DNA of 852 nt from Escherichia coli (GTDB lineage Bacteria > Pseudomonadota > Gammaproteobacteria > Enterobacterales > Enterobacteriaceae). A program made the translations under genes and the position numbers. The notes beneath the pieces are model-generated. The model was given only the letters and a program-made list of their open reading frames with translations, was not told the origin of the DNA and ran no database searches. The DNA lies in NCBI RefSeq assembly GCF_003334335.1, contig NZ_QOWQ01000144.1, one strand, 5' to 3'. Positions 1-852 of this stretch are shown here, one piece after another (position 1 is the first letter of the stretch; the number at the start of each line of letters is the position of its first letter).

Positions 1-64
1 GCGTCACGAAATGTCACGACATGTCACGGCGTGTCACTACGTGGTCACATTGATGTCACGACGG
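1..64 (+). repeat. Iteron array A: 6 direct copies of core GTCAC(GAC) at 10-11 bp spacing; may continue upstream of the window
   Basis: GTCAC occurs at 3-7, 13-17, 23-27, 33-37, 44-48 and 55-59, with spacings 10, 10, 10, 11, 11. Extended copies are gtcacgaa, gtcacgac, gtcacggc, gtcactac, gtcacatt, gtcacgac, all in the same orientation. Confidence 0.75.
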
Positions 65-852
65 AAGATTTAGCAAGTGCGCTTGATGTGACGGAAGACG
101 TAATTGATTCAATTTTGCATGCAATGCAGGGGCGGGTTCTGGATGGTGACCTTATTTCCGGATGGGAAAAACGTCAGGTGCTGAAAGAGGACAATGGTAA
201 CGTTTCGCAAACGGCAAAATCCCCGGCAGAGCGCAAGAGAGCGCAGCGGGAGCGCGAAAAGCTGCGGAAATATGATGCTGATTGTCACGATGAGTCACGA
301 CGTGTCACGCATCTGTCACGACAAGTCACGACAGATAAAGATACAGATACAGAATTAAACCCCACACATAACGCGCGCATGCGCGAGAGTGCTCCAACCG
401 GTGAGTCGCATGGTGCGCCGTTGCAGACAGCCGAACCTGAATACCTGGACGGCCTGAGCGAACCGATCGGGAAATTTTCGATGACTACTGTCTGGCAGCC
501 GTCGTCGGATTTTCGACAACGGGCAGCAGTGTGGGGTATGGCTCTGCCTGAGCCGGAATTTACACCTGCTGAGCTTGCCGCATTCCGGGATTACTGGATG
601 GCGGAGGGGAAGGTTTTCACACAGGTTCAGTGGGAGCAGAAATTTGCCCGCCACGTGCAGCACGTCAGGACACAGGTAAAACCAGTCAGCAAGGGGGTAA
701 GCCATGCAGCATCAGGTGGCACGGCATCACGGGCAGTTCAGGAAATCCGGGCAGCACGCGAACAGTGGGAACGAGACAACGGATTTATCAGCAACGGAAA
801 TGGCCTGGAAGCTGTGGGAGCTTATGGGGGAGGTGTATTCGAACCGCTGGAC
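1..852 (+). CDS. Replication initiator / replisome-organizer protein with DnaT-like C-terminal domain; internal fragment, 5' and 3' ends both outside the window
   Basis: Frame 1 (codons at 1, 4, 7...) has no stop across all 852 nt, while frames 2 and 3 carry stops in the first 110 nt (e.g. TGA 51-53, TAG 71-73, TGA 84-86, TAA 101-103). Residues encoded by about nt 466-672 (GKFSMTTVWQPSSDFRQRAAVWGMALPEPEFTPAELAAFRDYWMAEGKVFTQVQWEQKFARHVQHVR) share the motif string W-Q-P-x-x-D-F ... A-x-W-G-x-A-L ... E-L-A-x-F-x-x-Y-W-x-A-E-G-K-V-F-x-x-V-Q-W-x-Q-K-x-A-R that I recall from the C-terminal domain of E. coli DnaT. The N-terminal two-thirds does not resemble chromosomal DnaT and contains the iteron arrays, as expected for an initiator whose origin lies inside its own gene. 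Homology is from memory, not a search. Confidence 0.8.
281..333 (+). repeat. Iteron array B: 5 direct copies of core GTCACGAC at 10-11 bp spacing
   Basis: GTCAC occurs at 284-288, 294-298, 304-308, 315-319 and 325-329, with spacings 10, 10, 11, 10. Extended copies are gtcacgat, gtcacgac, gtcacgca, gtcacgac, gtcacgac, in the same orientation as array A. Confidence 0.75.
333..360. other. AT-rich tract with AGATA(C/A) x3 tandem; candidate DNA-unwinding element
   Basis: agataaagatacagatacagaattaaac has 21 of 28 A/T, in a window that is otherwise GC-balanced. AGATA starts at 333, 339 and 345. It lies immediately 3' of iteron array B. Confidence 0.4.
374..385. repeat. Perfect 12-bp palindrome CGCGCATGCGCG
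   Basis: cgcgca|tgcgcg is its own reverse complement. It is an alternating GC-rich run about 14 bp downstream of the AT-rich tract. The function is unknown; it also encodes part of the linker (A-R-M-R-E). Confidence 0.6.

Follow-up and report, generated by a model that had tools for sequence, protein, structure and literature searches.

The 852-nt window (the whole stretch of Escherichia coli DNA that was analysed) forms the body of the replication initiator gene of a lambdoid prophage; to judge from the sequence, this gene probably also houses the origin of the phage, an iteron origin lying inside the initiator gene. An origin within the initiator gene is a known kind of system, that of phage lambda. 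The probable origin is marked by two arrays of GTCACG repeats and by an A-rich tract, all of which the original prediction for this DNA had left out. For a large family of initiators from proteobacterial prophages, unrelated to lambda O, the analysis thereby pins a probable origin and its probable determinant of specificity.

Frame 1 of the + strand is free of stops over the full window (284 codons, 852 nt); the remaining five frames hold 8–14 stops each, and when the window was shuffled 20 000 times, frame 1 was never open. The stop counts and the ORF list thus bear out the claim that this frame is open throughout and that the sole tracked ORF lies on the opposite strand. The frame-1 ORF is missing from the track because the ORF lister leaves out ORFs that run past the window ends. 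The longest ORF that is listed (nt 355–705, − strand, 116 aa) is a shadow ORF. Its codons coincide with sense codons of the real gene, so that stops are possible only opposite sense TTA, CTA or TCA, and this register also accounts for its being open in several relatives. We rejected it as a gene on account of this register, of an internal stop in the E. coli O145 RM9872 locus (L088) and of its absence from the RefSeq annotation.

E. coli chromosomes such as that of JE86-ST05 contain the window with 100% identity. The window corresponds to nt 12001–12852 of the reference locus L001 and to codons 43–326 of a CDS of 1038 nt and 345 codons (L001 11875–12912, WP_046623286.1), which covers nt 1–852 of the window on the + strand; the true start lies 126 nt upstream of the window and the stop 60 nt downstream. 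RefSeq labels the product ‘DnaT-like ssDNA-binding domain-containing protein’, and the gene is already annotated and common. Residues 1–326 match positions 4–302 of the 302 in the PHROG profile phrog_1408 ‘replication initiation protein’ (E = 1.3e-118), which makes the protein a member of that family of initiators (‘replisome organizers’); together with the content of the locus this supports the reading of the window as an internal slice of a replication-initiator gene within a replication module. No RNA family was found by Rfam in the window (E ≤ 1), and a scan for promoters and terminators inside the gene gave nothing beyond the expectation from shuffles. Megablast against phages and plasmids returned few matches; the informative ones were the E. 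coli chromosomes and those from protein-level searches.

In E. coli, 1505 of the 1509 matching places are chromosomal, and the host locus is a lambdoid prophage adjoining yccA. The prophage is ordered integrase, exonuclease and dicB, a divergent DicA-like repressor, a Cro-like gene, a YdaT/CII-like gene, the initiator and a P-like gene, with RusA and then antiterminator Q farther downstream. The nearby integrase, repressor and Q and the chromosomal matches narrow a setting first given as ‘prophage- or plasmid-borne’ to a prophage, and the cro/cII-type regulators predicted upstream are present as the Cro-like and YdaT/CII-like genes. The DnaC-like helicase loader predicted downstream gives way to a lambda-P-like loader: no AAA+ DnaC/IstB-type gene follows the initiator, and what comes next is a gene for a 153-aa ‘replication protein P’, its start overlapping the initiator stop. 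This protein matches phrog_109 (E = 4.5e-54, profile positions 74–236 only) and residues 94–202 of lambda P (25% identity, E = 1e-6, BLASTP). The homology includes the DnaB-binding C-terminal part and places the protein among the lambda P-type loaders; the first ~90 residues of lambda P are absent from it, for which reason the initiator–loader contact may not be the same as in lambda. A further profile, phrog_15931 (482 positions), is matched by the initiator at positions 1–347 and by the P-like protein at 331–482, which suggests that the two genes are fused or form one ORF in some phage genomes. Past the replication module (L001 14719–17260) several genes are frameshifted or truncated (DUF4752, ead/Ea22-like, DUF551). 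The prophage also carries hokD in addition to dicB and may, given the several frameshifted genes, be partly defective.

Searches with tblastn against phage genomes give matches that break at aa 151–160 and divide the initiator into an N-module (aa 1–151) and a C-module (aa 160–345). The N-module is common to E. coli phages Evi and Tritos (85%), Aeromonas phage pAEv1818 (55%) and Pseudomonas phages (~60%), the C-module to Rac-SA53 YdaU, PPompW prophages and others. In E. coli a C-module of identical type, with its P gene, is also found behind a DUF1376 N-module. The AlphaFold2 model of the N-module is folded over aa 1–100 (pLDDT ~90) and consists of three helices, a loop of low confidence (aa 46–60), a helix-turn-helix and a β hairpin. 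As modelled, the fold is a winged helix that may resemble those of the DnaD-NTD and RepA_N initiators; its C-terminal two thirds (aa 43–100) are encoded by nt 1–174 (+ strand). Pfam run on the full protein finds the DnaT domain only and leaves the N-domain without a family, with no match to Phage_rep_org_N or RepA_N, so any likeness is one of fold only. From those initiators, and from the ‘replisome organizers’ of Gram-positive phages (e.g. SPP1 G38P), the present family differs in its proteobacterial hosts and in its C-module. The winged helix is followed by a basic linker (aa 101–136, nt 175–281, + strand) that is mostly modelled with low confidence: the pLDDT is ~45–55 over aa 101–120, rises to 73 for aa 121–130 (the maximum beyond aa 100) and is below 50 from aa 141, and the model puts a helix at aa 117–145. 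At the other end of the protein, most of the C-terminal tail (aa 267–326 of 345) is encoded by nt 673–852 (+ strand). The C-module and ‘replication protein P’ co-occur behind different N-modules; because the tail always travels with a P-like gene, it is a putative docking region for the P-like loader.

The C-module contains a three-helix ssDNA-binding domain of the DnaT C-terminal type (aa 197–266, nt 463–672, + strand). A sequence search of the PDB aligns these residues with the C-domain structures of E. coli DnaT (E = 7e-21 to 1e-16, ~55% identity over 70 residues; PDB 4OU6/4OU7, 6AEP and 9ZBT, with 6aep, 4ou6 and 9zbt at E ~1e-19 to 1e-21), and Pfam assigns PF17948 with E = 1.3e-16 to aa 159–224 of the window translation (nt 475–672). 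The DnaT-like domain first placed at nt 466–672 is thus real. In E. coli DnaT, mutation of Y127, W128, K133, F135, K143 or R146 impairs ssDNA binding (PMC4132743); all six are kept in the initiator, as Y240, W241, K246, F248, K256 and R259, and with the PF17948 match these contact residues place the domain among the DnaT C-terminal ssDNA-binding domains. Homology of this strength, with the binding residues conserved, is what would be expected if the gene were a host-type DnaT paralogue acting in PriA-dependent restart and not an origin-specific initiator. We regard that reading as the least probable of those considered. The protein was rejected as an orthologue of DnaT (primosomal protein I, NCBIfam NF002770), since it scores 93.4 bits against an equivalog cut-off of 201, the match being limited to positions 82–155 of the 179 in the profile (protein aa 194–268), and since its N-terminal half is a different, winged-helix module. 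The description of the product as DnaT-like accordingly holds for the C-terminal domain and fails for the N-terminus. The gene also lies in a prophage module running from cro/cII to P, and the DnaT module is found fused to several unrelated N-modules. Both the N-terminal domain and the PriB-binding linker of DnaT are absent from the initiator, in which the ssDNA-binding domain is tethered to a putative origin-binding winged helix, unlike DnaT, which is recruited by PriA/PriB.

The reading preferred here, an origin within the initiator gene, starts from the repeats. Exact GTCACG occurs 9 times in the window against 0.72 expected, a count reached by none of 200 shuffles. The 5-nt core GTCAC is present in 11 copies, all on the + strand, which form two arrays in the DNA coding for the N-module, with a spacing of 10–11 bp; TRF gives both arrays a period of 10 and also reports an ACAGAT array at nt 331–353. 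Array 1 (nt 3–59, + strand, period 10–11 bp) comprises six GTCAC(G) copies at nt 3, 13, 23, 33, 44 and 55, and sits in the codons for the low-pLDDT surface loop of the winged-helix domain. Relatives have four copies, and the two additional ones here come from a 21-nt in-frame expansion in this loop; other lineages have independent expansions of 6–7 aa. Array 2 (nt 284–329, + strand) comprises five GTCACG copies at nt 284, 294, 304, 315 and 325, and has 3–6 copies in relatives, with a codon register that depends on the lineage. If iterons are taken as at least three direct repeats in the same orientation, about one helical turn apart and far above chance, the repeats are iterons. A single inverted core (nt 88–92, − strand, reading GTGAC on the + strand) is kept in 11 of 11 diverse relatives, including its synonymous third position. 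In two IMG/VR contigs (L061 and L062) a 10-bp duplication of an iteron in array 2 (AAGTCACGAC, gene nt ~451–470) frameshifts the gene and leaves a 157-aa ORF that holds the N-module only. Proteins of 150–165 aa consisting of the N-module alone are present in databases (e.g. P0082, Pseudomonas aeruginosa), and a free iteron-binding N-module could inhibit replication.

The cores occupy all three codon phases, the period of 10–11 bp not being a multiple of three, and array 2 stands in a different register to the reading frame from one lineage to another, which yields cyclically permuted peptides such as CHD-ESR-xVT. Synonymous sites were compared among 11 sequences from γ- and β-proteobacteria (E. 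coli, Aeromonas, Pseudomonas, Azotobacter, Chromobacterium, Neopusillimonas and others; locus GC 48–65% in the six for which it was computed). Third positions at such sites are invariant in 5 of 5 cases inside GTCAC cores and in 4 of 52 outside them (Fisher p = 3e-5); two of these four are the G of GTCACG, and one lies in the inverted core at nt 88–92. Every N-module carrier examined has cores at gene nt 129, 139, 149 and 160, then an array of 3–5 cores at ~nt 388–430, then (C/T)AGATAAAGAT..., and this architecture is constant although the C-modules and the downstream genes vary (lambda P, DnaB-type helicase, primase-helicase, DUF6475, ParB-HTH protein). In all lineages examined, the last core of array 1 and the first of array 2 are 227–230 bp apart (238 bp in two loci), a spacing that protein length also constrains. 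Some of the conservation of array 1 is at the level of the protein, since the array overlaps codons that are themselves conserved.

In distant subfamilies both the loop peptide and the core are different; the change of core affects the two arrays together, and the period and the GATAAAGATA tract that follows are kept. GTAACG in L098, a metagenomic sequence, lies at nt 133, 143 and 154 and again at nt 404, 415, 425 and 436; these account for seven of the eight copies in the locus, against 1.0 expected, and none of 200 shuffles reaches eight. L097, L099 and L100 carry GAACGC-type cores in both arrays; in L099 the enrichment of GAACGC is weak on the whole-locus count (reached by 5 of 200 shuffles) and the argument there is one of position. 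GTCAC is absent from all four of these arrays' loci (L097, L098, L099 and L100). Core and loop peptide pair as GTCACG with ASRNVTRGH, GTAACG with ASTNVTRGN and GAACGC with ASNATERGR. Prophages that combine the same C-module with a DUF1376 N-module have no GTCACG, and TGTTCAAACA repeats precede the same A-rich junction in them. The repeats thus co-vary with the DNA-binding module of the initiator, and codon phase, synonymous sites, conserved architecture and covariation together argue that they are DNA-level elements.

The possibility that the repeats arise as a side effect of a repetitive peptide or of slippage during replication, with no function at the DNA level, draws on the position of the arrays in an insertion-tolerant loop and linker of low pLDDT, on their variable copy number and on the 10-bp slip that frameshifts the gene in two contigs. 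It is very improbable in view of a period out of step with the codons, with all three phases used, lineage-specific registers and permuted peptides, of the invariant synonymous sites in the cores and of the joint switch of core in both arrays of the subfamilies. An extension of the preferred reading is that the origin is bipartite, with array 1 written into the loop codons of the very winged helix that reads the iterons, so that specificity and loop change together; co-resident prophages of EHEC that share an iteron type could then cross-fire or titrate each other's origins. We hold this extension to be possible but unlikely.

Two side observations concern the N-terminal modules of related loci. 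A gene for a protein with DUF1376 and HNH parts lies just upstream of the initiator with GTAACG iterons (L098 1007–1501), so the DUF1376 module also occurs as a separate gene next to this type of initiator. In L088 (863–2197) an IS3-family element is inserted upstream of a third type of DnaT-like initiator, and the remaining N-part there has repeats of its own, CAAAGACACCCAAA in three copies and others of the CCAAAAACGG type.

Directly after array 2 lies the A-rich tract GACAGATAAAGATACAGATACAGAATTAAA (nt 331–360, + strand, GC 0.325, strong A skew), a candidate DNA-unwinding element that also forms the recombination boundary between the N- and C-modules, where the tblastn matches break. Nearest-neighbour energies make it the least stable of all 30-mers in the replication genes at this locus (z = 2.9), and the equivalent tract is the least stable 30-mer of the whole 2–3 kb region in the Pseudomonas, Azotobacter, Neopusillimonas and DUF1376-type loci (z = 3.5–4.1). 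Nucleotides 331–360 thus provide the adjacent AT-rich, easily melted element that is looked for in an iteron origin. A 12-nt unit, GATAAAGATACA (peptide DKDT), is present in one to five copies among prophages that are otherwise 91–100% identical (L007–L086), so that the candidate unwinding element changes length in frame. A perfect 12-bp GC palindrome, CGCGCATGCGCG (nt 374–385), is located 14 nt past the tract. In lambda, too, a palindrome is situated to the right of the AT-rich region. The palindrome was rejected as an origin element, since close variants have CGCGCGAGAG in its place. In Pseudomonas phage Marin the initiator (L004 2501–3401) is annotated as two CDSs and in phita81A (L005 2501–3400) as one; the two differ by one G in a run just past the A-rich tract (CCCCCCTGAGGGGGG vs GGGGG).

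Iteron plasmids have control arrays that serve titration or handcuffing. The repeats could by analogy be real DNA-level control sites (for autoregulation, titration/handcuffing or incompatibility) used by the initiator or by another factor, with replication starting elsewhere in the prophage. The two separated arrays resemble those of iteron plasmids with control arrays, array 1 has no AT-rich tract beside it, and up to four copies of the cassette are co-resident in a genome. This reading seems to us distinctly unlikely, because the least stable A-rich tract always stands right after array 2, even in a locus of 65% GC, because the layout copies that of ori-lambda inside O, and because the motif clusters nowhere else: the 25 kb of locus examined contain no further cluster of cores with 0–1 mismatch.

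If the origin lies at array 2, as we favour, the sequence suggests the following course of initiation. The initiator would bind the iterons through its winged-helix domain and then oligomerize, and oligomerization at array 2 would melt the adjacent A-rich tract. The tethered DnaT-like domains might then coat or mark the exposed single strand, much as the C-terminal domain of DnaT, which probably forms filaments on ssDNA that mark the helicase-loading site, does in replication restart (PMC13377028). Host DnaB would arrive with the P-like loader, recruited by the C-terminal tail. As for array 1, it could belong to this nucleoprotein complex or serve as a control array for titration or handcuffing, as in iteron plasmids.

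This arrangement resembles O, ori-lambda and P in several respects. The order cro, gene at the cII position, initiator and loader is the same; the proposed origin, like that of lambda, is located within the initiator gene, where an N-terminal module for DNA binding meets a C-terminal module for interaction with the loader; an A-rich tract on the coding strand comes after the iterons (the annotated lambda iterons are at O nt 349–433); the loader is a distant homologue of P; and the N and C modules recombine independently. The initiator itself is outside the lambda O family (Phage_rep_O), with E = 2.1 against O in BLASTP and no match to O in Pfam. The iterons here are short cores, all direct, with a period of 10–11 bp, whereas lambda has four annotated sites of 18 bp, and there are two arrays ~230 bp apart in place of one. 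The C-module here also has the DnaT-type ssDNA-binding domain, and its partner is the shortened P-like protein. The Rac-type YdaU prophage initiators (DUF1376 + DnaT-like) have in common with the present initiator the C-module (78–96% identity), the P-like neighbour and the A-rich junction, and differ in the DUF1376 N-module, the TGTTCAAACA repeats before the junction and the lack of GTCACG. The literature searched, whose coverage is incomplete and which includes the Eru papers on Stx-phage replication regions (PMC8044961, PMC8951638), has no description of these repeats or of this origin, so that the family is without experimental precedent there; an earlier description elsewhere is possible.

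The N-domain family comprises 2236 clusters at 50% identity, and of 5426 complete E. coli genomes, 702 contain DNA of the N-module, in at most four copies per genome. The O157:H7 strains among those listed typically have three copies, in different prophages, all having GTCACG iterons. With a common origin specificity, prophages in one genome might cross-activate or titrate each other. The core sequence in both arrays offers a testable rule for which prophages share origin specificity, a rule of relevance to the induction, cross-activation and incompatibility of the numerous lambdoid prophages in EHEC. The family is also a naturally occurring case of a DnaT-type ssDNA-binding domain at work in what we propose to be origin-dependent initiation. 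Many database entries for the initiator protein are marked ‘partial’, which is consistent with assemblies breaking at a gene that is present in multiple copies.
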